Part shown: piece after piece, positions 1 to 60,800 of the stretch
Layout of the letters: each line of letters opens with the position of its first letter
Numbering within the stretch: position 1 is the stretch's first letter
DNA from: Cyanidioschyzon merolae
Lineage: Eukaryota
Direction: 5' to 3' (one strand)
DNA: 64,000 bases
Assembly (NCBI GenBank): GCA_000091205.1
Contig: AP006502.2
Program-made: the position numbers and the translations under genes
Notes under the pieces: model-generated
What the model saw: only the letters and a program-made list of their open reading frames with translations
What the model was told of the DNA's origin: nothing
Database searches by the model: none

Positions 1-410
1 CCCGCGTCTCTCGGCGTTGCCATTTCATCCGACATGAAACAATATTGTAATATAATGCTTTTATATGGAATCAATGGACACAATATGTTGGAGCGCGGCG
101 ACAATCCGCCCTACCGCAGTGCCGACTCGCGCCGCACCAGCGCCGCTCTACCGCCTGCACAAGTCTATCGTACCAGGAACGTGTCTATCCACGAACGTCA
201 GTGTACTTTTCTCGACAGTCGCGGCCGGTGCTTCTGGGTCCTCGAACCCGTATCCTTGTGTACGACGTCGGTTTTGGTAGACGGATCGAGTGAGTACGGC
301 TGGGTGACGGTGACGCCTGTGAGGTCGGGTGCTCGTCGTCGGCGACGTCTCTGTGCCTGACAGGGGCGGTGGTGAGCGCGACTGTGCGCAGCGCACGTTA
401 ACAGGGCGTC

Positions 411-1013
411 ATGCGCATCGAAAAGTGTTATGTCTGCGGCGCGAACGTCTACCCGGGCCATGGCAGTGTTTTTGTGCGGAACGACGCAACTTTTTTCCAT
501 TTCTGTCGTTCCAAGTGTATTCGAGCCTTCCGACGCAAGCGCAACCCGCGCTACCTACGTTGGACGAAAGCTTACCGCAAGGCCCACGGGAAGGAGCTCG
601 CCCAAGATCTGACGTTCGCCTTTGAACGACAGCGGCACACTGTGCCCAAGTATGACAGAGAACTTGTTCGGGACACTTTGGCGGCGATCGAACGCGTGAC
701 CCAGGTGCAACAGGAGCGACAAAAAGCGTTTTACCTCCAGAGAATGCGCGTGAAACAGCGCATAGAGCAAAGAGAGGCAGCCGTTGAGCTTGCCCGGCAG
801 CGAGCGACAACCAGCCTGCGTGCCATCGAAAAGCTGCCGAGTGTACAGCGGCGACTGTCACACAGAGCATCCCATCCCTTGGTACGCGAGGCGCGCGCTG
901 CGCTCGTCGCAGCCAGTTCCATGCAGGAACCTGCGCCAACGCACTCTGAGCATGGTTATATGGCGAGTGAGCTCACGGACGGCGCTCCGCAGCCGAACGG
1001 GACCCTGTCGTGA
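411..1013 (+). CDS. RLP24: Ribosome biogenesis protein RLP24 (ribosomal L24e-like, TRASH domain).
   Basis: The N-terminus MRIEKCYVCG..VYPGHG..FVRND..FCRSKC..RKRNPR..WTKAYRKAHGKE has the Rlp24/L24e hallmark. A charged coiled C-terminal tail follows, as in Rlp24 rather than RPL24. The ORF starts at ATG and stops at TGA. Confidence 0.85.
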   Translation: MRIEKCYVCGANVYPGHGSVFVRNDATFFHFCRSKCIRAFRRKRNPRYLRWTKAYRKAHGKELAQDLTFAFERQRHTVPKYDRELVRDTLAAIERVTQVQQERQKAFYLQRMRVKQRIEQREAAVELARQRATTSLRAIEKLPSVQRRLSHRASHPLVREARAALVAASSMQEPAPTHSEHGYMASELTDGAPQPNGTLS

Positions 1014-2162
1014 GCACTCGAGGTTCCCCGGTCGTGTCTTGCCGGGGTTGCGCTCCGGCCTTCGAGCACCAGAACCTGCAACAGATTCTGCGCAGATCGA
1101 CTGGTACGGGCGCGAGCGATGCATTCTAGATGCATCTTGTTTCTGCCGAGCGAAATTTAGCGATACTCGGCATGGTATCGTTTACGCACGTGCATGTGTT
1201 CCAGCTTTGCGTGCGCTGCCGCATTCTACGAAGAGCGACCGTCGATCTCGACGAACGAGATGTCAGATACGTACCCGACGTGCATGGTGAAGGAATCGGG
1301 GCTGAAGTTTTACGTAGCAGGGATACCGTGAGGTTTCATGGCGCACGCTTCCGCCATTTGCGTCGTCAGCAGGTATTGCATTGCGGGTTTCTCTCCACCG
1401 AGTCAACATCAACTGCGTAAATTATCAAGTTGCCGACGATCGATTTCGCTGGAGGAGGTCCCGCTAGTTACACAGACAATGCCCCGCGGCATCATAATGA
1501 CATCGGAAACTCGCTGCTCCCTGATTTGTGCGGACAGTGATGGAGATCACGAAGCGGATTGCTCGAAATTCGAATCCAGCGTCTCCTGCAAAACTACCGC
1601 GCAACGTAATATAGAAGCATCTGTAGATAACCGGTTATCTCCTGTGTGACTTTGGGCAGCGTCCGCGACTGCGGGCGCCCAAGCGGGTACAACGATTGAC
1701 GGTACATCAGAACGCGGCACGTTCAGTTCTTCAGCGATCAAACGCTGAGCACCAGTACGCCGAGATCTCCGGTGTACCAGACGCCGGTACACGTCCGTGG
1801 ATCACCCCGCTGAGGTGGAGCGCTCCGGAGCAGGGTGCCCGACGCGCTCGGCACTTGACATTGGCATCAGCCGCGCTCGTTTCTAATGTCATAAAGAACG
1901 CCGCTTTGTTCGGAGGCGCACACCATACGTACGCACCGCAGAAACCCTGACGTATTCCCGCGGCACTGACGGGAACGTTTTTGAACGACTCGTCATGTCT
2001 GGGCATCCTCAGAGAGATCCTCCTCTATATGCGTCCTGTGGAGCAGCTTGGCACCGCCACGAGGCCACCGCGCAAGCGAAAACGCGCGACAGACTGTTGA
2101 TGCGGTACCGTTAAACGCAAGGGGAACTCTCCAGTGCCACAGACGCCATGCTCTGGTCATCT

Positions 2163-2858
2163 TTATGAGCTGGTCCGGTTCGTGTGTGTCTTGATGATCT
2201 CCAGGATCTCCGAATAGGCTTCGTATTTGGAGTTGCGAACAAGACCGCCGAACTTGCGCGGTTGCTCCTGCGCCAATAGCTCCTCGACCAACTGTTGAGC
2301 AGTGCGGTTTCTCGAGTCGCGCAACTCAAATCGCAAGAAATCACACGCTGCATCAGTCAGTGCACGAACCGTTGCTGGACGTGCATACCCGCATGCCATG
2401 TGCAGCGCGGTGAGCCCCTGCGAGTCTTGCGCGTTCACATCGACACCAGCCTTGATGAGCATTTCGACGACTTCGGCCAAACCGAGCGCCGCGGCAAAGT
2501 GCAGCGCTGTTCGGTTATCCCGGTCGACAGCGTTCACATCGAAAGGAAGACCTCTGCCGTCCAGGTGAGCCCGCAGTAGCTCTCGCGCTCGTTCCGCGTT
2601 CGTATTCGGTGGCTGCAGCGCTGTGTGCAACGGCAGCGGGTCATAGGTATCGCGCAGGTGCACTTGTTCCTTCTGCGCACTATCTGGCTGTTTTCTCCAA
2701 AACGAGCCAATACACTGTAAACTACGCGCAGATGACGCTTGTCTCGGAAGTTTTTGCGTCGAATACGAGCGCAGTGGCAACCGCTGTCTTGTCAACAGCC
2801 GTCGCTGCAGTCGAGTCGCGTGCGCAGGGCTCGAGGAAACCAGAAACATGCTTTCCAA
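2163..2858 (-). CDS. Ankyrin-repeat protein with an S/R-rich N-terminal extension that may be a targeting peptide.
   Basis: Two clear ANK repeats are present (..NRTALHFAAALGLAEVVEMLIKAGVDVNAQDSQGLTALHMACGYARPATVRAL..). The exact start is uncertain. Confidence 0.55.
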   Translation of the reverse strand: MESMFLVSSSPAHATRLQRRLLTRQRLPLRSYSTQKLPRQASSARSLQCIGSFWRKQPDSAQKEQVHLRDTYDPLPLHTALQPPNTNAERARELLRAHLDGRGLPFDVNAVDRDNRTALHFAAALGLAEVVEMLIKAGVDVNAQDSQGLTALHMACGYARPATVRALTDAACDFLRFELRDSRNRTAQQLVEELLAQEQPRKFGGLVRNSKYEAYSEILEIIKTHTNRTSS

Positions 2859-3614
2859 CGTGCTTCACTGCTGCCAACTTGTCCCGCCTATACCAGGCGT
2901 CAGGTTCTACAAGTCGCCGCCTCGGGTAGCGTAACCTCTATGTGTAGTCGACGATAACGACGACAACGACGAAAACGTCGAAGTCGTTGGTGTATGCTGG
3001 CGTCTTTAGTGGTAATGACAGTTGGCGTCGTGGTGCCGGAGCAGGCCGCGGAGCTCATGTGCGTCGCTCCGCGGCTGGTGCTCCCAGCGCGCCGTCCGGT
3101 TTAGGCACGTTTTCCATCGCGATGACCCAAGTGCGTCAGCAGCTGATCCTGGCGATACAAGCGTTGTTGACGAGTGCGTACATTTGCATATGCACTGATG
3201 CTTGTGGGATATTGCGAGCGTTGAATAGGACTGCATGTATATGTCTATGGACACGAACACGCATTGGCTGGTAAACAAAGACTGAGGTACGTTCTGGTAG
3301 GGATCATTGCCGAGGCGATACGCTATCGCCAGCAACAAGAGCGGCATCACAGTTCCTGGGAGACGATTCGTGCGGTCCGACGCCGCGCTCGGTCGTTGGC
3401 AGCCAACAACCGAACATTCGTCTTCATAATCTCTATGCCGAGGCTGGTCTCATAAATCCATCATGGGAATACGCTGGGGGCGCGTCGTTCGGCAGATACT
3501 GTTGCAGGTTTTTGCACGTTTCGTGCTGCGTTTTTACGACGATGTCGGACACATCTGTGGCTTCCACAACGCTGGGTCACGCTGAGCATGTTCCAGCGTT
3601 CCTGAACGGGTGTT

Positions 3615-6744: not shown

Positions 6745-8694
6745 TCAGGCCGAGAGTACCGCACTCGACGCATTCGGCAACGCTTCCCTCCACTGCAGCG
6801 AATCCTTCAACGCCAGCGTAAGCATCAGTGCCTGGGCATAGTTCAGTCGCGGATCGCAAGCTGAATGGTACGCGCGAGCGAGGTCATGAACTGCGGTTCG
6901 GGTGGCGCCACCAAGGCACTCGGTCACCGCTTCGCCGCTCATTTCCAGGTGTATGCCACCAGCAGGCACACCTTCGGCAGCGGTAATTTCAAAGAATAAC
7001 CGCATCTCGTCGAGAACCTGCTCACAGTCTCGAGTCTTGAATGAATTGCCGTTCTTGTCCCGAACACTCTGGGTATTCGCATGCATCGGATCGCACATCC
7101 AGACGACTGCGAGGCCGCTGCGCTTCACCGCTGCCATGAGCGGTGGAAGCTTTCGCTGGAGAGCATCCACACCCATGCGTGTGATCAGTGTCAGACGTCC
7201 GGGAGTGTTCGCGGGATTCAGGATCTCGGCTAGCGCAAATACTTGCTCCAGTGTAGCGTTTCCAGACAGTTTCACGCCAATCGGATTGGAAACACCTCGA
7301 AGAAACTCAACATGAGCGCCATCAATCTGGCGAGTGCGCTCACCTATCCAGAGAAAATGAGCACTTGTCGCATAATACTGCGGCGCTGATAATAAATCGA
7401 TAGGCGATCCCGCGTCTCGGTTCAGGTGCTCCAGGGTATGTGCATTGCCCGAAGGAGACCAGTCGGCAAGGCGCACTAGGCCTTCCTCGTACGGAAGTAA
7501 AAGTGCTTCGTGCGACGTGAACACATTCTCGATCACGTTTGTGTCGATACTTGTTACATGGCGGCCAGTGCTGCTCATCACTATGATTTCTTCATCGATT
7601 CCTTGCACCAGGTTTTGAATCGCCTTCACCAGGTTCGAGTCCACGACGCTGTCCCAGGCCAGTTTCTCGCTCAAAATCCTCAGCGATTCCATCGGAGACG
7701 CATGCAGGTGCTCAAGAACACGCAGATGTTCCAGAGACGCGGACGCATGCCGGTACGCCTGCAAGAGTCGCTGTGGGTCCGGAGTTCGCGCTCTGCCATT
7801 CGGTGCTGCGGAGTGCACGATGTCGCCCCGGAACGACGGCAGCCCGTCCGCATCCACAGGAGCAGAGCGAGGCTTCGCAAACTGACCTGCTATGCGTCCG
7901 ATTCGAACGATACGCCGCTTGCTCCCAGTACTCGATAAGATAGCCGCCTGGGCAGCCAGCAAATGGTAGAGGCTTATGTTGTACTCGAGGGTGCGGCTCG
8001 AGAACGTTTCGGCACAGTCCCCACCCTGAATCACGAACGCCTCACCGTGACACGCCGCGGCCAAGTGCTCGTGCAGTGATCTGATCGATTTGGGTGTCAC
8101 GAGACCGGGGAGTGTGCGCAAACCCGCTTCGACGAGCGCCAGCTGGTCTTTATCCGGGTACACGGGTAGCTGGTGCGCAGGTCGCTGGCGCCAGGAGCTC
8201 GGTGACCACGGCTCCGACCCTACCTGCCGACCCCCGATCGAGACGCTGTTTCGCAGTCCGAACGCTCCGCAGCCATCGCCGAGCCGTACGCAGACCTCCG
8301 CGCCCCGTTCAACGTAGTAGACGCGGCTGCTCAGCGCGACGCTTCCACACCGACGCACCGCTTGCCAAGCAGCGCGCCCGCTCACTCTTCGCCGAAACGG
8401 ATTCGACACCACAAACCCTTCCATTGAACGTATAGTGCACGTAATAGCGGACGAAGGTCGCTTCGATGCAACTGAGCCCGCAACGGCTTCCGAAGCTGCC
8501 GCCCCCGGAAGCATTCTGCGCTTACAGCCAACCTCGCTGCTGCTGTTGCCGGACGCAAAAACGGCGGCAACCGGCATTCCGGCCGCCGCCAATGTCGACG
8601 CCTTCCTGCAGCGCATCCGGACACGTGTCTGGTTCCCGGCGGCGTTTTGATCATCGTTCACCTCAAATGTGTTCCACATTCCGGTGCAGGTCAT
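6745..8694 (-). CDS. 3-deoxy-D-arabino-heptulosonate-7-phosphate synthase, class II (plant/microbial type), with an N-terminal extension of ~170 aa.
   Basis: Class II DAHPS motifs: GGDCAETF, IGRIAGQFAKPRS, WIGERTRQxDGAHVEF, CDPMHANT, HLEMSGEAVTECLGG. The true start may be an internal Met downstream of the transit-like region. Confidence 0.9.
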   Translation of the reverse strand: MTCTGMWNTFEVNDDQNAAGNQTRVRMRCRKASTLAAAGMPVAAVFASGNSSSEVGCKRRMLPGAAASEAVAGSVASKRPSSAITCTIRSMEGFVVSNPFRRRVSGRAAWQAVRRCGSVALSSRVYYVERGAEVCVRLGDGCGAFGLRNSVSIGGRQVGSEPWSPSSWRQRPAHQLPVYPDKDQLALVEAGLRTLPGLVTPKSIRSLHEHLAAACHGEAFVIQGGDCAETFSSRTLEYNISLYHLLAAQAAILSSTGSKRRIVRIGRIAGQFAKPRSAPVDADGLPSFRGDIVHSAAPNGRARTPDPQRLLQAYRHASASLEHLRVLEHLHASPMESLRILSEKLAWDSVVDSNLVKAIQNLVQGIDEEIIVMSSTGRHVTSIDTNVIENVFTSHEALLLPYEEGLVRLADWSPSGNAHTLEHLNRDAGSPIDLLSAPQYYATSAHFLWIGERTRQIDGAHVEFLRGVSNPIGVKLSGNATLEQVFALAEILNPANTPGRLTLITRMGVDALQRKLPPLMAAVKRSGLAVVWMCDPMHANTQSVRDKNGNSFKTRDCEQVLDEMRLFFEITAAEGVPAGGIHLEMSGEAVTECLGGATRTAVHDLARAYHSACDPRLNYAQALMLTLALKDSLQWREALPNASSAVLSA

Positions 8695-9763
8695 CAGGTG
8701 CTTTTTCGCGGTTTTGTAGCGGTTGCGGTCGAAGTGCGTTCATTTTCAAACATAAGATACCCTAGGGAAAGGTGCGGACATAAAATTCGGGGAACTTGGA
8801 GGGCGGCATTGCTGGGTTCTACAAAAAACCCGAAAGAAGTCCATGTTCTCGCTGACCCGCGCGCGAAGCAGAGCGAGTGACGGACAGGAAGAAGAAGAAG
8901 AAGGAGATAGAGGAAACACTGTTTGCCTGACAAGTCGATGACGAGACTGCATTAGCACAGAGGGTATGCGTTCGAGGAATCCTTGCAATATTGAGTTCCC
9001 CTAGAGGCAGTGCATGTAAGGAGTTCGTAAACCTGAACGCTAACGCTGCTTCAAGTATAAGACGACGTGCTGTGCTGAGGACGAAACTCGAGGACCTGAC
9101 GCGAACCAGCATCGTCGGGCAGCCTCTCAGGCTCGAAGTATGCCTCGATAAACCGAAATCGATAGCAGGCGGCCAGTCAAAACAGGCTGGAAGGCGTCTG
9201 CGAGGGCGTAGATATATATAAACGCTCCATCGTCGTAGGGTGTTTACGAATGACTGAACGCTCAGATACTGCAGCAGCGCGTGCAGCGCATTCGCGGCAG
9301 CGCACACGCATGCGCAACGGCGCGACGATGCAGGCGCGCACATCGATCCAGTGCGTTGTTAGCGGACTGCCATACGCGGGCATCGAACACCAGCGTGTTG
9401 CCGGCGTGCACGATTCCTGTAGGCAACTTGCGGTAGCGACTGCCGCCTCGAGAGTGCAGCGGAGGAGATCACACACATAAATGTATTCCATTGGATTGGG
9501 GGTTCTCGGCGAGAAGGTAACCTACCGTGCAATCCATTCGAGATTAGAGGCTCTTCGTGCAACAGTCTCCGCAACCGGCAAATGCGCTACGGACATCGAG
9601 GGGCAGGGCGCTTTTCGCCAAGGTCTGTGCACCCGTAATGATAGTATCCAGCACCAAACAATCCGCGTGTGGAAGACGTCGTCCCCCAGGCCGGATGTCT
9701 CTCCGAAAGCAGAACCCTTATTCCCATCATTTCCTCTAGTCGTGGAGCACTGGTTTTGCTGGA

Positions 9764-25843: not shown

Positions 25844-26817
25844 GCTTCAAAGTATATATGTCAGTCTATGAATTGAACTATATTACCTGTGTTAAAGTGA
25901 ATTTTAGCACCGTATGTTACGAGCAGTCGCGAAAGCTCCACACACGCACACACACAACCGTTGTATACCGAGCGGAGCAAAGAATTCGAGCCATTCGTGT
26001 GATGCGACGCAGCATGCGCTCGCCCGCAGCCGCTCGCCCGCAGCCGCTCCGTCGTGCGCATGCCGCGCCGCATCACACGATCCCAGATGTGACCGATCGC
26101 GGCGAACGACGTGACATCGATTTCCTTCCGATTCGATAGGGCGTGTGTCCGCTGACCACGGATCCAGGACTGCGGGATGGATGCAGGTACTCGGGGAAGC
26201 GTGCATCATGTTGCACTCTAATTTCGATTACCGTTAAGTTCTCTTGGGCGTGCGGGCCGTTTCGTACGTTCTATCTTGAACCGAGTGCCTGCCGTGCTGT
26301 ACCCATCATAGCACCGAGACCGCTGGCACGGATGCCGTATTGAGAAAGCACGCGGTATTGCGCGAATACTGAGGGTGTCGGCTCGATGCCATGATTCGTT
26401 CAACGCGGCACCGCAGTGCATAATCGTGCCGGGAGCCAGCAAGCTGTGCATGCGGACATCCTGTCTGCCGACGCGCGGAGCGATATGCTACGAGTCCGCT
26501 GCGACCAGGGCGACGCCCAGACGCAGCGTAACCGTCCCTAGTGCAAGAATAAAGTGCGATGCCGACGATTTGCTCAGGTATTGCCACAGCACGCGCCACA
26601 GAACAGAGCGTGAAACACGAGTCCAACAGACTTGGACGCTCCGCGGGACCTAATACCGAGGAGGTAAACTCTCGAGAATATGGAAAACCTTTTCTTCCTT
26701 CCACGCTACCGAGAAAGCGAAACGAAATTATGATACGGTTGCTAGTCAGTGATAAGTTTCTGTTCTTTCCGCACCATACTGCATCACAGGGATGATGCGT
26801 GCGCAGCTACGAGCCAT

Positions 26818-26970: not shown

Positions 26971-26990
26971 ATGGATAGTCGCTCGACAAA

Positions 26991-27095
26991 CTTGGAAGTA
27001 CGGCGTGGAATGATGGGCGCTTTCCCGGAGGCCGATACCCATCCAGCCCGCAATCTGGGATCCATGGTCCATGGGAACGTTTTGTCATCGAAAAG
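26991..27095 (+). repeat. Conserved non-coding element, copy 1. Its ~60-bp core is ~85% identical to 33495-33553.
   Basis: Both copies share the core cccgcaatctgggatccatGgtcCatggGaaCgttttgTcatcg. This copy lies ~245 bp upstream of the DDX3/Ded1 ATG and contains the ATG of a 66-codon upstream ORF (27071..27271). Confidence 0.7.
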
Positions 27096-30899: not shown

Positions 30900-33400
30900 C
30901 ACGAGTTGCCATGAACCAAAATGATCGAGAACTTGAAGCGTATGTGATTTGACGAAGCTACACATAGGGATTGGACACGAGCGGAGGCTTTTAAATGTGA
31001 ATCGCATGATAAGATCGGCTATTAAATGAACCCTTTTTCGATAAAGTTGCGAATCATCTTGATTCTAGTGACGCTACGAAATCCGAGTAGACAGCATCGG
31101 AGGAGCCGCTTCGAAAGCGCGACCGAGAATCCGAGAAATTCCAATGAATCCATTAGCACCCTGTGTTCACTATCCTCTTTTTATACACATGTGATCAGAG
31201 AAACAAAAACGCTTTCTTCGAACGTCCAGGATAAATGAATACCTACTCACAGACGCTTCCCAGTCTTTTCCGACCGGCAGCCTGCTATCGGCTTCAGCTT
31301 CTCCTTGTACACTTTGAGCCTGAAAGGTTGCCCCATGAAGTTGGATCACCTCAGGTCCGCAGATCTCGTCTTCTGCACCGCATATCGTCTGGCGTGGATG
31401 GCGGCGTTGAAGTCTCGGTTCACGACCTCCATGCGTTTATTGCAGCTGGTTGGACTCACTATCGCGAGGCTCACTCGAACTTTTGCATTCTGTACCACTA
31501 CAGTCCCGCCATTGGCCTGTCGAGCAAACACCTTTTTTTTTGTCAGTGTCCCTCTTCTTCGTCACTTGCTCTTCTTCGTTCGATGGCCGGCGAGCATATT
31601 GTTTTCGTCCATTTCGGGCGCCCGGCGATGACGGGCCTGCAGGATCCTCGACTGCCATGTGCATAACTGTCCCTTGGATGTTTTGTTTCTTTAAAATGAA
31701 CGCACTTGTTTATGCCCCTTTGTGGTGACCTTCACGGACGGAGAAGGGCCTGCGGAGGAACGACGCATGATATCCCGATGTGTCGCCGTGTGCTGAACGC
31801 TCTAGCGATTCACCTAGAGGATCGATCAATACGTTTCATAATAGACAACACGCCTTCCATGGGCTTCAACCACGGAGCGTACGGAGGAACGAAAAGCAGC
31901 TCTACCCCGATAGAGTGCGCAAAAGCTCGGACGCAATGGGAACGCTGAAATGCCACGTTTTCCAACAGAGGGACGTCACCAGACCCACAGGTGAAAGGTC
32001 TTCGATCATTCAACAAAGTGGTTCATGCTGGCCTGTGAGCCTGCTCTACGAGCGAAACCGAAGGCTCCACTGGAATCCAGTGCACAGCTAGAACACATGA
32101 TGATGTCCTGGTTCTCTTCGAGTTCGATCATATATACAACGGGCCCCATCACCTCGAGTACCCGTGTACGCTCAGTCGATTTCATCCGATGGACGTGTCA
32201 TCTGCGGAGGGAAAACAAAGCAACATAACTCCGTTTCATACCGACCGCTGAGTTCCAGGACCGCTATTGTTGTGATTTCGATGGTAAATGGCCGTGCGTG
32301 AACCAGGACTTTTTCTGCGCTTGTATTCCAACGTTTTCAGGACTATACGAACAAACAGTGAAGAAACAGAGACGGTCATGGTGGCTACTAGCGTCGCTCT
32401 CTGCTTGCTGTGCGATGATCAATCGGTCGTTTACGATCATTGGCAGCAAACAGTCTTTGAGAATGCACATATCTGGCACGGAGCGCTTGTTGTTGTTTCT
32501 TTCAGTATTCCTCAACTATCTGGGTACATTGGTATGACCAACCTGAAGGAGTAATGCAGTCCTCCATGTGCACTTCCGTAAAGCGCATTTCCTATGGGCA
32601 ACTCGGCTCCGATCTACACTGTACATTGGAGTGTGATATCGATCGTCTGCTACGCAGCGTGGCAGGTGGCGGCACGAAACTGTTTTGAACGACTGTAACG
32701 GGAGGTGAATGGTGGAACCTGCAGTTATGGTGCAGAATGATGAATGACCTCACGTACGCGGATAACGTTGGCGCCCAATCGAAGATGTTTCAGTTCGTGA
32801 CTGCGAACCATCGATCAACGTACAGAAACGATCCGATTGCTTCATCCTATGGATGATGGAAAAAGAAGAGAAAATTACTATTGTATTGGCGAAAGTGTGC
32901 CGAAAGAACAGAAACAAACCACTAACTAGGAACTCGATAACAGTAGGTTTCCCTCTGTACGATAAACCTTAGAAAAGGGGGACGCTTTCCGTACGATCGA
33001 AAGTTTCCCTTGTAGACGGAAGAGCCCACAAGCCGGACGAGTCTCCGGGGCTCGTACTTCATGCCCCTCCCCCAGTGGCGGATGTTGTGACGAGACGTTA
33101 GCGACTCGTTCACATTGCGAATGCACTCTGGAACTCTGGGCAGTTGGACGGTGTCTGTGCGTCGCCCTGGTCCGGGTGGACTCCTGGAATATCGCTTCGC
33201 GCTGCTGCAGGCAATAGGTCTATATGCACAGCTTGCGGGGTTTCAGAATAATTATGCACTCTGACCCCGCTTCAGGTGAAGCACTCCTCGACCCGATGCC
33301 CTCAGTGGTATGACGAAGCCGTTCTGACTCCGTGATGCATCTGCTCCAGCGTTTTAGGCGCTACTGCCGGTGCATTGATGCAAGAACTCGGCACACGTTA
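30900..33400. mobile_element. AT-rich block with no long ORFs that harbours the mariner-like remnant. It is probably a decayed DNA-transposon insertion, and its boundaries are uncertain.
   Basis: GC content drops against the flanking genes. It contains a (T)10 run and the transposase fragments. A weak inverted match (gctcttc..cgt.c near 31568 and 33023) may mark degenerate TIRs. Confidence 0.35.
31810..32515 (-). pseudogene. Degenerate mariner-like (Tc1/mariner superfamily) transposase remnant.
   Basis: Minus-strand fragments in three frames align with the Mos1 transposase. CFFTVCSYSPENVGIQAQKKSWFTHGHLPS matches IVTGDEKWIHYDNPKRKKSWVKPGQPS, with the first DDE Asp lost. LVEQAHRPA matches LLHDNARPH. 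LLFVPPYAPWLKPME matches LPHPPYSPDLAPSD. Stops and frameshifts separate the fragments. Confidence 0.55.
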
Positions 33401-33449
33401 GAACGTACAAAACAACCAGCACATCCGAAAGAAAGTACAAGCAATGGAA

Positions 33450-33555
33450 CTTGGAGGTAGGGTGTAGCATCATGATGGAAGCTTTTTCGATTGCGATTAT
33501 CCATCCCGCAATCTGGGATCCATAGTCAATGGAATGTTTTGGCATCGGAACAAAA
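33450..33555 (+). repeat. Conserved non-coding element, copy 2, overlapping the annotated 5' end of the KMO ORF.
   Basis: It aligns with 26991-27095 over ~105 bp. The core is ccatcccgcaatctgggatccatagtcaatggaatgttttggcatcgg. Confidence 0.7.
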
Positions 33556-45664: not shown

Positions 45665-46591
45665 TCATGCTAATGGTTCAATCCCGCCATTGCGTTGCCA
45701 AGTATCCACAATCTCAACGGTTAGTAAAACTAGCCGCGTTGACTGGTTCAGAATCGCAGACTCTAAAGGAGACCTCTGGCTGGTTGAAGTCCCGATCGAG
45801 GTACCGGGCGCCTGGGGCATCGACTTGAGCTGCAGCTGCTGCTCCAGACGTATTCGAGCGAGATCATAGCCGGCTCGTGCTGCATCTACAATGGACTGCA
45901 CGAAGCGATCAAACTGGTCAGGAACTCGGAACTCCTCCGTGATCGCTCGATTCCGACTGGACTGTTCAGACGGGGCCTCCGGCGGCATGCGATCGCGAGG
46001 AAAGTTCACATAGCGAAGCACCTTGAAGACCAGCGTTAGCCATATCGTGCGCAGCTCTACTTCATCAGCTTCTAGTGGACGAGGGAGTTCGCCACTAGCG
46101 CTTCGGTTTCCAGAACGAAGTGACTCGGCACCGACGCGGCGGAGCTCGATTTCTAGCGCATCCAGCGAGTAACCAAGGCGGTAGGCCCGAACAGTGGAGG
46201 CAATAAACGACCGTAGTGCAGCAACATACGGCACGCCACTTTGCGGTAAGCATGCGTTGAGAAACGCCTCGTGGATGGCTCCCGCCACCCCGTTGACGTC
46301 ATCGTTCTCAGCGGCGGAGGATAACACCAGCCGATAGACTACGCCGCGAGGTGACGCAGATTGGTGCAGTGCTTTCCGGTGGCCTCTCCAGTGTAGCTCG
46401 GCGCTACCGAAGCTTGGCACGAAAGCCCCTGGTGCCAACGGGCAACCCATACCTCCAGATAAAGGCATCAGCTGAGTGCGTAGCGTGCGTTGCGGCAAAG
46501 CGGCAACCCGTCGGCCTCCAGCGTGCAAGTGCGTTCCTGCCGCTGCAAATGAAGCCGTTCGTCGTAGCGTGCTCATTGCAAAGCAGAGCAT
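45665..46591 (-). CDS. Hypothetical protein (308 aa) with an S/T/R-rich N-terminus that may be an organelle presequence.
   Basis: The ORF is long with balanced composition and has no recognisable motif. Confidence 0.35.
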   Translation of the reverse strand: MLCFAMSTLRRTASFAAAGTHLHAGGRRVAALPQRTLRTQLMPLSGGMGCPLAPGAFVPSFGSAELHWRGHRKALHQSASPRGVVYRLVLSSAAENDDVNGVAGAIHEAFLNACLPQSGVPYVAALRSFIASTVRAYRLGYSLDALEIELRRVGAESLRSGNRSASGELPRPLEADEVELRTIWLTLVFKVLRYVNFPRDRMPPEAPSEQSSRNRAITEEFRVPDQFDRFVQSIVDAARAGYDLARIRLEQQLQLKSMPQAPGTSIGTSTSQRSPLESAILNQSTRLVLLTVEIVDTWQRNGGIEPLA

Positions 46592-47841
46592 TGGCGGTAC
46601 ACCCTTTCACGTTTCCGTTATCGCTCTTAGCAGGGACAGCAACTCCACGCAGAAGCTGCGAAGCAAGCAAGTACCCGCTGTAGCTCAAGGCGGACGCCAG
46701 CGCTCGACGCGTGCCTCGGGATCTTCGCACGCGCGCCTGCGCTGCCGTTGGGCAGCCGCAGGTCGCTTATGATCGATGGTTTTTTTCGATGACAAAACGT
46801 TTCCATGGACTGCGGAAAACAGATTGCGGGTAGGTAATGGCAATCGAAGAAGCGTCCATCATGGTGCTACGCCCTATCTAAAAGTTCTATTACTTATAAT
46901 TCCCTTCGGATGAAATGGTCGTTTCGTGCGTTCTCTCTTTCGCCGAGTGCCTACCGCGAGCACCCGCCGTCGCGCGTATACCGCTGGTGCGCATGCCCCA
47001 CCGAGACAGAACCGCCTTTCTATGCTACTGAGGGCGTCCGCTCGAAGGATGATTCACCTGACACAGAATCAGGGCTCATTATCATTCTGGGAGCCTGCAA
47101 GCTGCGAGGCAGATATGCCGCTTGGGGCAGAGCGAAGCGATACACTAGGAGTCTACCGCGATCAGGACGACGCCCAGACACAGCATCCCGCTCCTAGTCT
47201 CCGAATATACTGCGCGTTGACGAGTTGCTCAGGTCTCGCTAAAGCACCAGCTACTGCAGAGTCGCATGAAGCACGAGTCGGGGAGACTCGTCCGGCTCGC
47301 GGGACCACCTGCCAATAAGATAAACTTTCGATAATATGGAAACCATTTCCCCTTTTAACGGTTATCGTTGAGGGCTGCGCAATTTTCATCATGTTGCTCG
47401 TTAGTGGTTCGTCTATGTTCTTTTGTCTGCAGCGCAGTCCATACGCGCACACCCGTATCTTGTAGGCATCAGACAAGACGCGTATCAGGCGGTTGAAAGG
47501 AAACGCGATCCTGACCATGAGCTTGTAGCTCTATGGTAAAAGACGTATTAGGGTTGAAGACGTAGCAAAGTATAGTGTTTTATCCCAATTGTGCTCCAAC
47601 ACTCAAGATAGTGTATTCATGTGATTTTTCACGGTTTATAGCAGAAGCGTTCGAAGTACGTTCTTTTTCTAAAAATAAAAATAAAGTTGTGGAAATAGAA
47701 GTGGAAGATCCTGGAGAGCTGGTATCCCCGGTTGCCGGAAACAGACGAATAACATTGCGGAGCAAAGAGGAATCGGGGAAGACGAAGAAGCAAAAAGGGG
47801 AGGCCCGACGCCGAAAGCTGCAAGAAAGACGATAATGCGAC

Positions 47842-49551
47842 GTGATGGTGGTGAAAGCCTGTCTTCTTAAACATATCAAGGATCCTTACAGGGAAAAGTT
47901 GCGAGACGCTATCAGAAACCGTATCGACTCGTACTCCAAGAGCATCGTCAAGGCGTCGTCAGGTCTGATGCATTTGGCGAGGGGGATGTATCGCGACGTG
48001 AAGCACATGGAAACAGTCGAGATTCCGGACGAGTTTTTCGATAAGACCTTTAGTCGTCAGCTGATGTTTGGCACAGGGGAAGCTCCGAGGGAAAATGAGC
48101 GAATGCATGCCCTCCACGAGAAACATCCCTTTTACAGGTTCGAGGGTAATCGAAACAAGGGGGACTGGGGTATTTACGACAATGGGGCGATGAAGTACCT
48201 CACGAATCTGAAAAACCATTTGACAGTGAACCTCGAACGTTTCATGATACGCGCCGTGTTTGCGCTCCACCCGGGCATCTCTCGCAATGGAAAATGGGCG
48301 ATTATCAGTGGCATCATGAAAGATCGCAAGCATGAAGACGAGATCGAATTTGTCGGAGAAAAGGCGTCAAACGAGAGCACGAGTGAGGATTCCGTCATCC
48401 GCGCGGTTATACAAGAGCATCGTGCAGTCTCGGGGCTGACGAACCCAGCAGAAAATGTATTAGATTTGAAAAAAGATAAGGAAAGATACTATCGCCTCGT
48501 CCTGCGCTATTTCGTGTTTTTGGACCGTGAACTCGAATGCAAGGCAGAGATGAAGCTGAATGGGACAAAAAATGAAGATTCGGGGAGACGGAAGGCTGCG
48601 CTTCTGGGTAAGCGCTTCAACGTCGTTCCGTTATGCAACATCAAGTCACATTTTGACACCATCGACTCCAGAATCGCTCACGGCAGCATAAAGGAGATCA
48701 GTCCGGAGTTCGATGTAAGGAGGACAGAGTTCACTGGTGGAAACCGGGAGACGTACTGGAAGAACATCTTCAATTTCAAACGGCTCAAAGTCAGCAAACA
48801 AAAGGTATTCACTGGGATGATCGAAAACAATGGGGTAGCCATGTGTGTCCACTATCGGCGGTCGAAGGTGGATCGCCCAATCGTGCCTTTCGCTTCGCCC
48901 TCTGCGAAGCATGAAGAAAGCAAAGAGGCGGATCCTGTGATGCAGGAGGTGCAGGATAACGACTCTGTCGTTGGCGCGGACCCGGGGAACACGAACATCG
49001 TAACCATCGCAGTACCCAAGCACGGGGTATATGGTAACGACGGCAATTTACGTCAGAAAGACATGCGTCTTTTGAGAATCTCGAGAGCGAGATGCTACCG
49101 AGAATCCGGTATAATGAATGTGAGGAAGAAAATTTCTGCATGGGATGCAGGAATGAAGGATCACCTGGAAGCCACGAGCGCGGTGACGAGCCGAGAAGCA
49201 GACTTTAAAGCTTTTCGGAAATTCGTGGAAGTTCGTGTTGCGCATTGGGATGCCCTGTGGGAGGAGTATACCGAGCCCAGATGGGCTCGTTTGCGTATGA
49301 ATCTATACTGTGGAAAGCAGCGGGCGTTCGCGAATTTTTTCAATGAGTTGAGCGCCTTGAAGGAGGATGAAAATCAGAGGCTAGTAGTAGCATACGGAGC
49401 AGGGCGATGGACGACCCAAAAAGGGTGTACACCAGCTCCAACGACGAGGGTGTACAAGGAGTGCGCACGGCGTTTCGTTACGAACCCGGTAGATGAGTTT
49501 CGAACATCGTATACACACCATGAACTGTGGTGTACACTTCAGAGGGTCTAG
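47842..49551 (+). CDS. Fanzor-like protein (eukaryotic TnpB/OMEGA-family RuvC nuclease homologue). This is the main ORF body, and it is interrupted at the C-terminus.
   Basis: A ~380-aa N-terminal region precedes the RuvC-I-like motif [16 protein letters not shown], whose Asp codon is at 48979-48981. Near the end, [15 protein letters not shown] resembles the TnpB TS-x-C zinc-finger lead-in. The ORF ends at an in-frame TAG (49549-49551). An in-frame TAA at 47833 separates it from an upstream 86-codon ORF with a K/R-rich NLS-like tail. Confidence 0.7.
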
Positions 49552-49763
49552 ATGGAAAAGTGTCCGGGGAGCCCCGAGGATATAGCAAAGTACGGACCGC
49601 TGACAGACGAGCAAATGGAAAGGATAACGAAAGTGCGCAGGCTACTTGCATTAGTGAGTAAACTCCTAACGGCACGAAACAGGTGGAGTTTGTGAACCGA
49701 GACTTGAACGCCGCTATCAATGTAAGGAGATGTGCGGTACTGGAGAATAGACCTCCAGACTAA
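49552..49763 (+). other. Displaced C-terminal segment of the Fanzor/TnpB-like gene carrying the RuvC-III motif. It reads as either a pseudogene tail or an exon after short introns.
   Basis: In the frame of positions divisible by 3, codons 49683..49763 read VEFVNRDLNAAINVRRCAVLENRPPD*, with RDLNAAINV being the canonical TnpB/Fanzor RuvC-III motif. It is separated from the main ORF by the TAG. A 29-nt GTGAGT..CTAAC..AG element (49654-49682) would splice frame 1 into this frame in phase. Confidence 0.6.
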
Positions 49764-50020
49764 ACAAGAGGGAACTTTGATGGACAATTCTGAAAGTTTT
49801 ACTATATGAGAAAAAGTTGGAAGCAGTTGTGGGTGGCCGGTCGAACAAGTCTGGCAGGCGTCTGCACATCAGTTGGAGACGTTTCGTTTAGGGTGTGTCG
49901 TTCGCCACTACTGTACACTGCCGGCAGCATCGTTCGACTTTAGATAGGCGTTTGGTGTTGGCTGCGTCTTAGACCTATAACGAGGCAGACCGATACGAAG
50001 CTCGGTGAAAGGAGCCGTTT

Positions 50021-57829: not shown

Positions 57830-60800
57830 GGTGCTTTGCGGACGTCACCGTTCGCAAGGGTTTCAAAAGTCGGCGTCGCTGGCCAGCACCCAGGAACACC
57901 GCAGTCAAACGCGCCACCGGATGCTCCAGTTGATATTCAGAGAGCGCGCCCTGAGTACTCTGTGGTCGTAAGCGTCGATTCTGCAGCGCAGCACGCCACC
58001 CCAACGTGTACAACGTGTGTGAAGCGACTTCACGTTGCAGTACAACGGAGCGCCTGCAAGAGCACAGGTTCAAGTAGGCAACGCAGTGCAGCTGCCGACT
58101 TGCCGCAACGCAATGCAGCGCGACGTGCCGAGTCTGACGGCGTTACAGCCAGCGTGTTGCTGCTCAAGCGGTCCTCGATGCACTGCCTGCTGGAATACCT
58201 TTCCATGCAGGTCCTTCTTGTTTTTCGTTTGGTTTTCTCGCAGGTACTCACTGAAAGGAATTTATTGGGTTGCTTGGGGAAAAGTTGCGTAAAGACTTGA
58301 TCCTGTAAATACTAGCTTGCGAAGACGCAGACTCATTTGCACAAGTCAGCAATTCTGCGGGCAGCACGTGGATGACGCACCCTGTTCGTCGACGTTATCC
58401 TGAACGCCGCGCACTCAAAACATAACCTGTGGAACTCTATGTACACGGCCATCTCCTCGTCCATACATGCTACTCGAGACGTTTTCTACCGAATAATACT
58501 AGAGAAACCACAGGTACTGAAGTGTCCACAACATTGAAACGAACGATGACGAAGGGACACCGATGGAGAACGGAAACAGGTGCGCTTCTGCTGGAGATCG
58601 TCGTGCGTTGAGCAACAAACGATCGATGTCGCACTGAAACGCGATCGCTCAGTCCAACACGAACGAGTTTTCGACTCAGTCTACGAGACCTCGTTGGGAG
58701 AAACGCCAGACCGATACATGCGGTACTCCAAACGGGCTAATCATCTGACCGAATCGGAGAGACAAGCGAGCGTCTCGAAAATGTCATTCCGAGCGGCGAT
58801 TCAATCGACAGGTCACCTGTGAAGCGACAAGCGATCTTTTCTGTTCAGCAATGCGTCCATCATCGAGGCGGCCCGGTGGCTTCTCCGCCGCGCATTCCTC
58901 TGTCTCGCTCGTACACATCGTCGCTTTCCATCATTCACAGGCGGTGAACGAGTACGCAGCTCCGATTCGCGTTGAACCGGTCGTCGTGTTAACCTATTCT
59001 CTCAGGTTCACTTGACTCGAATGCATCGTGTCTACTGTAGCAACGCCATTTTGACGCTCGCGAATCATTGGATGAGTCACTCGCATCCGTGGCACCGTTC
59101 TTCGACAAGTGGTTCGATACCTTCACCAGTCTTGGACTGGTATATTGCCGGCCTGCTCGTGGGCCGGAAGGAGCGAAAAGATGCACTCCGGTCCATGGCC
59201 GTGCACGCAACGGAACAGGTGACGAAAAACTGCATGTGAGGAAGTTGAGATACATGCACGAAAAAGGCGAGTTTCGGTGCTACTGCCCAACCTGCGCATC
59301 TGAATCCCGAGTGAAAACGGATATTGGATAGATTCAGCACATCCATGCAAACCGGCTGCGCAAAGGAACAGATGAAGAAGGTGGCGGTAACTACGAGCAA
59401 GTATGATAAAGCCTTTGCACAATTTTGTGTGCAGCATTCGCTTAGCTCGTTCAAGGGTTCTCGTTTAAAGTGAGAATATGGAAATAAGTTGGCGTGGATG
59501 ATGGAGACCGAGGGGATATCCATCCGCACGCACTCTGTTCGACCGAAGCCAATGTCGAGGAACGAGACCCCTCGTCCATCGTTCAAGCTTGAGGAAGAGA
59601 ATGACGCTTTCGTGAGCGTGCTTCTCGGATTTCAGGAAATAATCGCCGCCACCCCACCTCTGTATGAAGACAACGGAGCCAGAAACCAGAATGGAAACCA
59701 CATGAAGCTGCTCAAACATTGACGGGACTCGTTATGATCGGGGATCGGTCACGATGACCCCCAAGAGGCATGCCCGCAGTAGAGTGAGCGTGCCAAGACG
59801 CATGCCGACGCCCTCAGTACAGCACCGGGCAGCGGCAGATGCCTTGCGCCCTGCATTCAGAGAGAGCACACACACGAGCGCTCAAACGAAGCATGCGGAC
59901 GACGTATGCTGGGCGATCATGAGACCGCTCGGGATTCGTCAACGATGTCGATTTTACGGATGCAGGAAGCAGGTATTCGCCAAATTTTCGAATGTGTCGG
60001 AGACGGCAATGACGAACAAGTTGGATCGTTTCGTGGCAGCCTATGGCGCTGGACGCAGTGTGACGCCCAGAGCAGCACTCCTGTATCTTCGACGAGCGCG
60101 TACACCGAGTGCTGGAATCGATGGTATACGATTCCTGTCGATGCGCTCCCTAACGACATACACGCATCACAGCGACGGATGCACACACGGAAACAGACGG
60201 ATAAGAAGAGACGGAAATCGACATGGACACACGAAACGCTGGGCGGTAAACTCTGACCGAACATCAAATGGCGAAGCACTCGAAAACGAGGCGCTCGCGA
60301 TGGTGTAACACGACCAGCAACCCGACGTGCAAGCATGTTCTGCGTACCCCGAGACCTGAGCGCCCCGCTCAACGCCTGCAAAAGTATCGTACGTACGGAG
60401 CGCTCAGCAGGTTTGTTTCAAGCGATACTTCGAAGGCATCGCACAGTGCATCGTGCGGGCATTGTGCTAGAACGCCGATGACTTGCGATGGAACGAGTCA
60501 GTGGCCAGAAGCGAGAGCATCGGATTCTTGCCTTGAGCAAAGCACGCGCATGGTACGGTTCAGGTATCCGTGAGAAAGGCCAAAACGCGCGGCATATACG
60601 TCTACATGGATCGGGAACGATTTTCCCGGTCAATAGTTGAACCATGATATTGTTCCGGTATACGACACCAGCGAGTCTATGAAGCTTAGAATCTATGGAT
60701 GTACGACGGAGCAAGCATGCATATCCGAAGACGCGCCCAGGTTACCATCGAGAGCAACTCGGCCGAGTGCCAAGTCAACCGAATACGTCTGCTGCAACAC

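Follow-up and report, generated by a model that had tools for sequence, protein, structure and literature searches.

What kind of gene is it that resembles an RNA-guided nuclease and lies in the nuclear DNA of Cyanidioschyzon merolae, a hot-spring alga whose genome is very compact, almost intron-free, and transposon-poor? The question is raised by a window of 64,000 nucleotides from this species (contig AP006502.2 of the GenBank assembly GCA_000091205.1), by which the whole stretch of DNA analysed is meant and from whose first letter all positions are counted. A sequence-only reading of the window, made without database searches, had proposed a gene of the TnpB/Fanzor type with a RuvC nuclease domain at 47842..49763. 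There is very little doubt about the answer, which is that positions 46787..49950 on the plus strand are one old, full-length, and coding-dead insertion of the element CMe-1A, the only gene of which is the Fanzor1 gene CMe-1. CMe-1A is a non-autonomous DNA element of about 3.2 kb of C. merolae, and both the element and its Fanzor1 gene are already known, as they were published in 2013 for the same species (PMC3627910).

By this assignment 3.2 kb of DNA of odd composition are placed in a published transposon family, the Fanzor relic in them having been spotted by reading of the letters alone. The family deserves attention as a high-copy Fanzor1 which was kept under selection, with no transposase known for CMe-1A. 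What remains of interest is not the copy in the window but the RNA guide of the family, its activity with the zinc ribbon missing, and its spread with no transposase. In the literature searched no study was found on an omega-RNA, a target-adjacent motif (TAM), the activity, or the movement of the CMe-1A family, nor any report of RNA-guided, TAM-dependent DNA cleavage by CMe-1.

Identity and Extent of the Element

In the paper in which Fanzor was named, CMe-1A is the sole Fanzor1 family listed for C. merolae (Bao & Jurka 2013, Mob DNA 4:12, PMC3627910). It is described there by a consensus of 3169 bp, with which its copies, about 150 in number, show about 80% identity each, some of them being still intact. 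It has no terminal inverted repeats (TIRs), its target site duplications (TSDs) are given as undetermined, its CMe-1 protein of 734 amino acids is encoded by a single exon, and its 5' 635 bp are identical to a separate short element called TE-N2_CMe (PMC3627910). The consensus DNA and the CMe-1 protein were taken from Additional files 2 and 3 of this publication. In a blastn comparison the published consensus, from position 1 to 3169, was collinear with window positions 46787..49950 at 84.2% identity, and a global alignment of the two yielded 84.6% identity with 11 small indels in all. The copy in the window thus shares with the published element the species, collinearity at 84% over the full length, a TE-N2 5' module, a single-exon Fanzor1 gene, a lack of TIRs, and divergence at the reported level (about 80%). 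It differs in having no coding capacity, whereas some published copies are intact, and this is no difference of kind.

Four parts can be told apart by alignment to the consensus, all on the plus strand. The 5' module corresponding to TE-N2_CMe (consensus 1-636) occupies 46787..47423. Next comes, at 47424..47688 (consensus 637-905), a non-coding leader belonging to the Fanzor core; the core common to all subfamilies starts at about consensus 645. The Fanzor1 (CMe-1) pseudogene, delimited by tblastn and by a map of its lesions, extends over 47689..49891 and corresponds to the consensus reading frame 906..3110 with its 734 codons. The 3' terminal 220 nt or so (49727..49950), which in the family are conserved to the same degree as coding sequence and which are decayed here, are a candidate omega-RNA or cis-acting end. 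No transposase is found within the element in the list of open reading frames (ORFs) of the window, and there are no TIRs at the CMe-1A ends, the only thing found being a 10-nt subterminal inverted match.

State of the Gene in This Copy

The longest reading frame that has survived in the Fanzor1 pseudogene is an ORF of 569 amino acids at 47842..49551 on the plus strand, which begins with a GTG. The motif NRDLNAAINV (49695..49724) is located about 145 nt past the stop of this ORF and in a different frame (+2). The features named in the sequence-only reading, i.e., the 569-amino acid ORF, the DPG-type motif, the segment VDEFRTS, and the downstream RDLNAAINV, are all present in the sequence and are parts of one Fanzor1 gene. 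That the resemblance is not due to chance was shown by stitching the ORF and the downstream frame together, which yielded 72 homologues (E values between 0 and 8e-60), every one of them in an environmental assembly, and by tblastn of CMe-1 against the window, which gave 77% identity over residues 1-665 plus pieces of the tail in other frames. The full equivalent of the gene is 47689..49891; the span 47842..49763 leaves out 51 codons at its N-terminal side as well as its C-terminal tail.

A codon-aware alignment to the consensus and a comparison with intact relatives located the lesions. The start codon (consensus 906) has changed from ATG to GTG at 47689..47691. Codon 49 has changed from CAG to the premature stop TAA at 47833..47835, where intact relatives read RQLYDE or RQYDE, and at codon 621 a conserved GAG has become TAG (49549..49551), which ends the 569-amino acid ORF. 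A 1-bp deletion at 49660..49661 is situated between the alternative catalytic glutamate and the RuvC-III motif, in a part which intact copies read in one frame as LALVSTTxxGKKRMEFVNRD. A further stop follows the sequence ...RPPD at 49761..49763, with TAA in place of the TTG of the consensus, and a second 1-bp deletion occurs in the C-terminal tail at 49787..49788. Since a stop recurs at this place in many other copies, the one at 49761 is possibly characteristic of a subfamily and not newly acquired. Compared to the consensus reading frame (906..3110) the codons of the copy differ by 99 synonymous and 159 non-synonymous changes.

With its start codon gone, its frame shifted twice, and two or three of its codons turned into nonsense codons, the copy cannot make the protein, and no single polypeptide contains RuvC-I, the catalytic glutamate, and RuvC-III. 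The window copy is a pseudogene. The gap between the ORF and NRDLNAAINV is due to the change of GAG to TAG at 49549 together with the 1-bp deletion at 49661 and not to an intron. The intact full-length relatives P0001, P0061, and P0063 read uninterrupted across the lesions of the window copy (...RGLLALVSTTxxGKKRMEFVNRDFNAAINI...). Of the gene that had been proposed, the identity as a Fanzor1 was thus upheld and the intactness was not; being a pseudogene leaves its assignment to the family unchanged.

Fanzor1 Fold and Catalytic Residues

An exhaustive profile search yielded 2679 relatives at E<=1e-3, from which 60 diverse ones, 26-40% identical to the intact relative P0001, were selected and aligned. 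Thirteen columns of this alignment are invariant, including the aspartate of DPG, the glutamate of (V)DEF(R)TS, and the arginine, the aspartate, and two asparagines of NRDxNAAxN. In the numbering of P0001 these invariant residues include D484, E656, R724, and D725. The profile built from the 60 sequences matches exactly three sequences in the PDB, which are all Fanzor1 proteins: PpFz (9cf0, 2e-20), SpuFz (8gkh, 5e-13), and GtFz (9cer, 5e-11). The profile alignment places the three acidic residues of the invariant set on D383, E541, and D606 of SpuFz1, with the spacing of 65 residues between the glutamate and the second aspartate checked by counting. In SpuFz1, D383 (with N385), E541, and D606 coordinate two Mg ions (Saito et al., PMC10432273).

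In the window the RuvC-I motif (ADPGN) with its catalytic aspartate is found at 48967..48996, the corresponding aspartate D383 of SpuFz1 standing in DPN (PMC10432273). The strand VVAYGAG at 49384..49404 occupies the canonical RuvC-II position and carries a glycine which replaces the canonical glutamate, while a conserved glutamate follows 33 residues downstream in VDEFRTS (49489..49509); this is the glutamate which aligns to E541, and it is succeeded by a cysteine-poor zinc-ribbon position. The RuvC-III motif NRDLNAAINV stands in the shifted frame at 49695..49724. A rearranged RuvC-II site of this kind, in which the canonical glutamate has become glycine or proline and an alternative glutamate is located downstream, is typical of Fanzors (Jiang et al. 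2023, PMC10530073).

The structure was approached by an AlphaFold2 model of P0001 based on the alignment of the 60 relatives (mean predicted local distance difference test score 83, predicted template modelling score 0.81). P0001 is 65-74% identical to the window translation, and the fold of the window copy itself is taken from it. A Foldseek comparison of the model with the PDB gave as the best seven matches only Fanzor1 structures (SpuFz, PpFz, and GtFz), with E values from 3e-17 to 2e-13 and a template modelling (TM) score of up to 0.72 on the target, SpuFz being the top match. Effectors of the Cas12 family came after these at E>=6e-3. Twelve of the 60 relatives match the Pfam domain Cas12f1-like_TNB at E<=0.01 (best 5e-6). 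By this model the family protein shares the fold of Fanzor1 nucleases of known structure, and it also has their catalytic constellation, consisting of the aspartate in DPG, the glycine, the glutamate in VDEFRTS, and the aspartate in NRD. With profile, structure, and the invariant aspartate, glutamate, and arginine-aspartate pair in agreement, the proposed homologue of TnpB/Fanzor-type RuvC nucleases in a eukaryotic nuclear locus was borne out, as was the likeness in structure to SpuFz1 that had been suggested for comparison.

Several observations weigh against this assignment. Pfam gave no match with either the window ORF or the stitched protein, including OrfB_IS605, PF07282, and TnpA, a shallow profile of seven sequences matched nothing in the PDB, and it takes a deeper profile or a structural comparison for the homology to Fanzor1 to emerge. 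The profile check called for by the sequence-only reading therefore came out in favour of Fanzor1 with the 60-relative profile, which matches nothing but Fanzor1 in the PDB, and empty for a direct Pfam scan of the window protein. In addition, CxxC pairs between the catalytic glutamate and RuvC-III are absent from the window copy, from CMe-1, and from 42 of the 43 relatives scanned. A C4 zinc finger between [TS][TS] and RD is part of the TnpB/Fanzor signature of Bao & Jurka (PMC3627910). As this zinc ribbon is missing, the nuclease competence even of intact CMe-1 proteins is not assured. The family is classed as Fanzor1 in the literature, which argues that the finger has degenerated in this clade rather than that the clade has to be excluded. 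The zinc finger that had been read into VDEFRTS and the following cysteine was thus put at the right position, where no finger is retained and where the glutamate is the alternative catalytic one. Most members of the clade keep just the cysteine of a GLLWC sequence, which CMe-1 also lacks.

Comparison with Related Nucleases

The best structural match, SpuFz1 from Spizellomyces punctatus (PDB 8GKH, 9CEU-9CEZ; PMC10432273; E 3e-17, TM 0.72 when normalised to the target), is likewise the product of a single-exon, multi-copy gene, and the motifs DPG/DPN, (V/L)DE(F/Y)xTS, and NRD superpose on its residues D383, E541, and D606. The sequence identity of SpuFz1 to the family is about 15%. SpuFz1 is flanked by inverted repeats of 30 nt, with a CATA TAM and duplication of TA, whereas CMe-1A has no TIRs, and SpuFz1 retains a cysteine zinc ribbon (CPRC...C...C) which CMe-1 does not have. 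RNA-guided cleavage has been demonstrated for SpuFz1 and is presumed by analogy for intact CMe-1. PpFz from Parasitella parasitica (9CF0), which is the strongest profile match (2e-20), and GtFz from Guillardia theta (9CER; PMC11423790) share with the family REC-like N-terminal helices and the RuvC core, aligned over more than 300 residues, and differ from CMe-1 in length, insertions, hosts, and element types.

TnpB of ISDra2 and Cas12f belong to the same RuvC superfamily, and Cas12 structures come next after the Fanzors in the fold search. TnpB has the canonical RuvC-II glutamate, whereas the glutamate of the CMe-1 family is rearranged. Compared to TnpB and Cas12f, CMe-1 shows no helix-turn-helix, no zinc ribbon, and no TnpA partner; its N-terminal REC-like region is much larger, and no direct Pfam match exists for the window protein. 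A prokaryotic TnpB of the IS200/IS605 or IS607 type does not fit what was found, as there is no Pfam match, a glycine stands at the canonical glutamate, a transposase ORF is missing, and the flanking genes are eukaryotic.

Selection and Variation within the Family

For a view of the whole family, 80 related loci from hot-spring-type metagenomes were placed together with the window copy on the CMe-1A consensus. Over most of the reading frame the first two codon positions show higher conservation than the third (e.g., 0.94 and 0.94 versus 0.78, in about 75 copies), a pattern which indicates selection on the protein during the spread of the family. Selection for the Fanzor protein during the spread of the family was argued already by Bao & Jurka (PMC3627910). 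An intact copy with 752 amino acids (P0001 type) recurs in several metagenomes.

Upstream of the core common to the subfamilies no fewer than four distinct 5' modules are found, TE-N2 in both orientations among them; the 3' end remains constant. Varied 5' modules are seen in the loci L014, L015, L022, L030, L038, L042, L052, and L073 and in others. Another variable part is a tandem unit of 75-80 bp, encoding about 25 amino acids (VAKHEEKKEADPATQEVQENDFVVGA), directly N-terminal of RuvC-I (consensus 2117-2196; e.g., L001:11225-11376). One copy of the unit is present in the window and up to about four to five among members of the family; in the AlphaFold2 model the expanded stretch (residues 388-470 of P0001) is disordered.

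The 3' End and a Candidate omega-RNA

After RuvC-III the reading frames of the family stop at three places (RPPE*, RENFIG*, and RRFV*), which include the recurrent stop directly after RPPE. Nucleotide conservation of 0.82-0.9 nevertheless persists past these variable stops to the end of the element, and the conservation of third codon positions rises (consensus about 2975-3169, window 49760..49950, loci L003-L082). Conservation beyond variable stops and the rise at third positions therefore point to a constraint other than protein on the last 200 nt or so. Conservation at the 3' end of the family stays at 0.7-0.9 up to consensus 3169, is 0.59 over the next 10 nt or so (TTTGTTG...), and then drops to background. 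In analogy to SpuFz1 and ApmFz, an omega-RNA is the most likely reading of this 3' constraint.

Folding gave a divided picture. The 3' 226 nt of the consensus fold better than 199 of 200 shuffled sequences (z = -2.3), whereas in the window copy the corresponding region shows no advantage over shuffled sequences (z = -0.3) and the terminal hairpin is disrupted. A hairpin can be formed by the terminal 20 nt in two variants, which differ in sequence and in register, CGTTTTTC-TTTT-GAAAGGCG and GTCGTTCGA-CTT-TCGAACGGC (consensus 3145-3169; columns 61-82 of alignment A5). In their own register 96% and 86% of the cells are paired in the two variants, compared to 48-61% in the other register. Three results speak against a conserved RNA structure at this end: RNAalifold found no consensus structure in the last 80 nt, covariation in two named hairpins was not above shuffles, although their pairing exceeded that of slid controls (75% versus 38-63%), and Rfam gave only a sub-threshold chance match. 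An alifold run over 250 nt produced many stems with almost no two-sided compensations.

By analogy with SpuFz1, ApmFz, and TnpB, intact members of the family would probably associate with an omega-RNA for which the conserved last 200 nt or so of the element serve as template, and the guide part of this RNA would probably read into the DNA which flanks the right end. The intact proteins would then probably cut matching DNA beside a motif resembling the left flank, and such cutting would, again by analogy, probably help the element to persist or to spread.

Insertion Sites and Mode of Movement

In about 16 of 19 copies the flank on the 5' side of the TE-N2 module closes with a run of T or pyrimidines, frequently as GAT(T)n. 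The 3' flanks begin with TTTG or TTGA. A degenerate, G/T-rich sequence of about 10 nt resembling TTTGTTGTTG is shared by 58 three-prime ends (49951..49965 in the window; loci L003-L082); the 5' flank in the window is found at 46747..46786. The shared flank sequence reflects either a target preference or ends which are slightly longer than the published consensus. Within the element, a 10-nt inverted match of GACAAAACGT and ACGTTTTGTC connects consensus 5-14 with 3098-3107 (about 46791..46800 and 49879..49888 in the window). It is 4 nt away from the 5' end and 62 nt from the 3' end, was reached by 9 of 2000 shuffles, and changes in step, at least in part, in two copies (L075 and L046).

A point against the account of the insertion given here is that no empty site for it was found among the environmental Cyanidioschyzon contigs with the same Nramp gene. 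The informative contigs (L085 and L086) all carry the insertion, and most contigs are interrupted within the repeat. What is given for the precise ends, for the target site, and for any TAM is therefore inferred from the copies. In one contig with this Nramp gene, L091, unrelated DNA (L091:1-1082) is joined at window position 49910, 40 bp inside the 3' end and upstream of the gene; the contig is probably an assembly chimera, otherwise a structural variant.

How an element of this kind could have been moved has more than one possible answer, and the first to be weighed is that CMe-1A is a non-autonomous Helitron2-type (rolling-circle) element which is mobilised in trans and has captured a Fanzor1 gene. 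This we consider possible though rather unlikely. The model for it are the Helitron2-borne Fanzor1 elements CRe-1/2/3 of Chlamydomonas, which resemble CMe-1A as non-autonomous algal elements with no TIRs, with variable 5' and constant 3' ends, a T-run at the 5' side, and potential for a hairpin at the 3' end. The inverted match with its in-step changes, the two hairpin variants at the extreme 3' end, and the constant 3' end facing at least four different 5' modules would all be expected of such an element, and so would the T-run flank together with the TTTG at the 3' side, given that Helitron-1N1_CRe inserts after TTTT with no TSDs (PMC3627910). However, CMe-1A was examined by the very authors who defined Helitron2 and was left unclassified as 'lacking TIRs', and the spacing of the inverted match is off their definition, with 62 nt instead of 20-30 nt at the 3' end and 4 nt instead of 0-2 nt at the 5' end (PMC3627910). 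The 3' partner of the match overlaps the last codons of the conserved reading frame, so that it may be conserved for a reason of another kind. Inspection by eye showed no 5' hairpin, and covariation of the 3' hairpins is not significant. No RepHel gene is known from C. merolae, no search aimed at RepHel having been made. The CRe genes, furthermore, have 5-10 exons, and the ends of the CRe elements agree with those of verified Helitrons, whereas CMe-1A has no known relative among the Helitrons. Replitrons were also considered as a carrier and were dropped, as none have been detected in red algae.

The other answer dispenses with a transposase altogether. The CMe-1 core (about consensus 645-3169) would then be a self-sufficient mobile unit which spreads by RNA-guided cleavage of look-alike sites and homology-directed copying. 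We regard this as improbable and put it forward as a speculation. It fits with about 150 copies which have no TIRs, TSDs, or transposase, with long-term purifying selection on the Fanzor reading frame, and with a constant 3' end of hairpin potential beside 3' flanks which share the TTTGTTGTTG-like 10 nt. It also fits with the T-run at the 5' flanks, possibly a T-rich TAM, and with several unrelated 5' modules on one core. If it were true, a Fanzor from a thermo-acidophilic host would be a by-product.

Genomic Surroundings and Further Relics

Four ORFs of the window match protein records exactly, three of which are named proteins of C. merolae 10D, the fourth clustering with one. Among these exact matches are the manganese transporter XP_005539209.1 (50021..51781), which Pfam identifies as an Nramp protein, and CMT166C. 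The CMe-1A copy is located between an upstream ORF on the minus strand (45665..46591) and this Nramp manganese transporter gene. In environmental strains the same insertion is found at 99% identity. The GC content of the element is 0.499 as compared to 0.570 for the rest of the window, and the compositionally foreign island beside host genes which the sequence-only reading had described is thus real as a difference in composition. What forms the island is the transposon itself, a single member of a family of about 150, with the lower GC content that belongs to the element, and this does not speak for a recent foreign acquisition.

A recent horizontal acquisition, by which a prokaryotic TnpB of the IS200/IS605 type or an integrated viral gene would have formed the island, is accordingly very improbable, even though a GC content of 0.50 versus 0.57 would suit it and a viral spread of Fanzors has been proposed by Bao & Jurka (PMC3627910). 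From the consensus of its family, which has about 150 members in the same genome, the copy has diverged by about 15%, its insertion is shared with environmental strains, matches to OrfB_IS605 or TnpA are lacking in Pfam, the best structural matches are eukaryotic Fanzor1 proteins and not TnpB, and the catalytic site is of the rearranged Fanzor type. Virtually no credence is left for an intact, functional Fanzor gene in which read-through and a 29-nt GT..AG micro-intron (49656..49684) bypass the lesions, since excision of gtgagt...aacag would indeed restore the frame into VEFVNRDLNAAINV, but intact homologues code throughout this stretch (LALVSTTxxGKKRMEFVNRD) and differ by one 1-bp deletion, which ruled the intron out, the TAG at 49549 takes the place of a GAG that is conserved, there is no ATG any more and a further stop is present at 47833, the C. 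merolae genes in the window are intronless ORFs, and there is no sign of stop read-through or RNA editing, with sense codons in the relatives at the sites of the lesions.

Besides the old CMe-1A insertion at 46787..49950 the window contains further remains of the same elements. Solo copies or fragments similar to TE-N2_CMe are located at 33547..32903 (minus strand, 80% identity to CMe-1A 1-636), 26153..26768 (plus strand, 73%), and 27090..26989 (minus strand, 82%), and such copies explain in part the low-GC patches at 30-33 kb. More CMe-1A remnants, comprising only the RuvC-III and C-terminal end, were found at 31486..31250 on the minus strand and at 8694..8750 and 8943..9218 on the plus strand, with 44-55% amino acid identity to CMe-1 residues of about 640-734; the one near 8.7-9.2 kb resembles an internally deleted derivative. 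A much more decayed Fanzor1-like relic at 59411..60475 on the plus strand, which is split over several frames and on the amino acid level 23-35% identical to the distant relatives P0061 and P0063, suggests that C. merolae has an older or a second lineage of the family.

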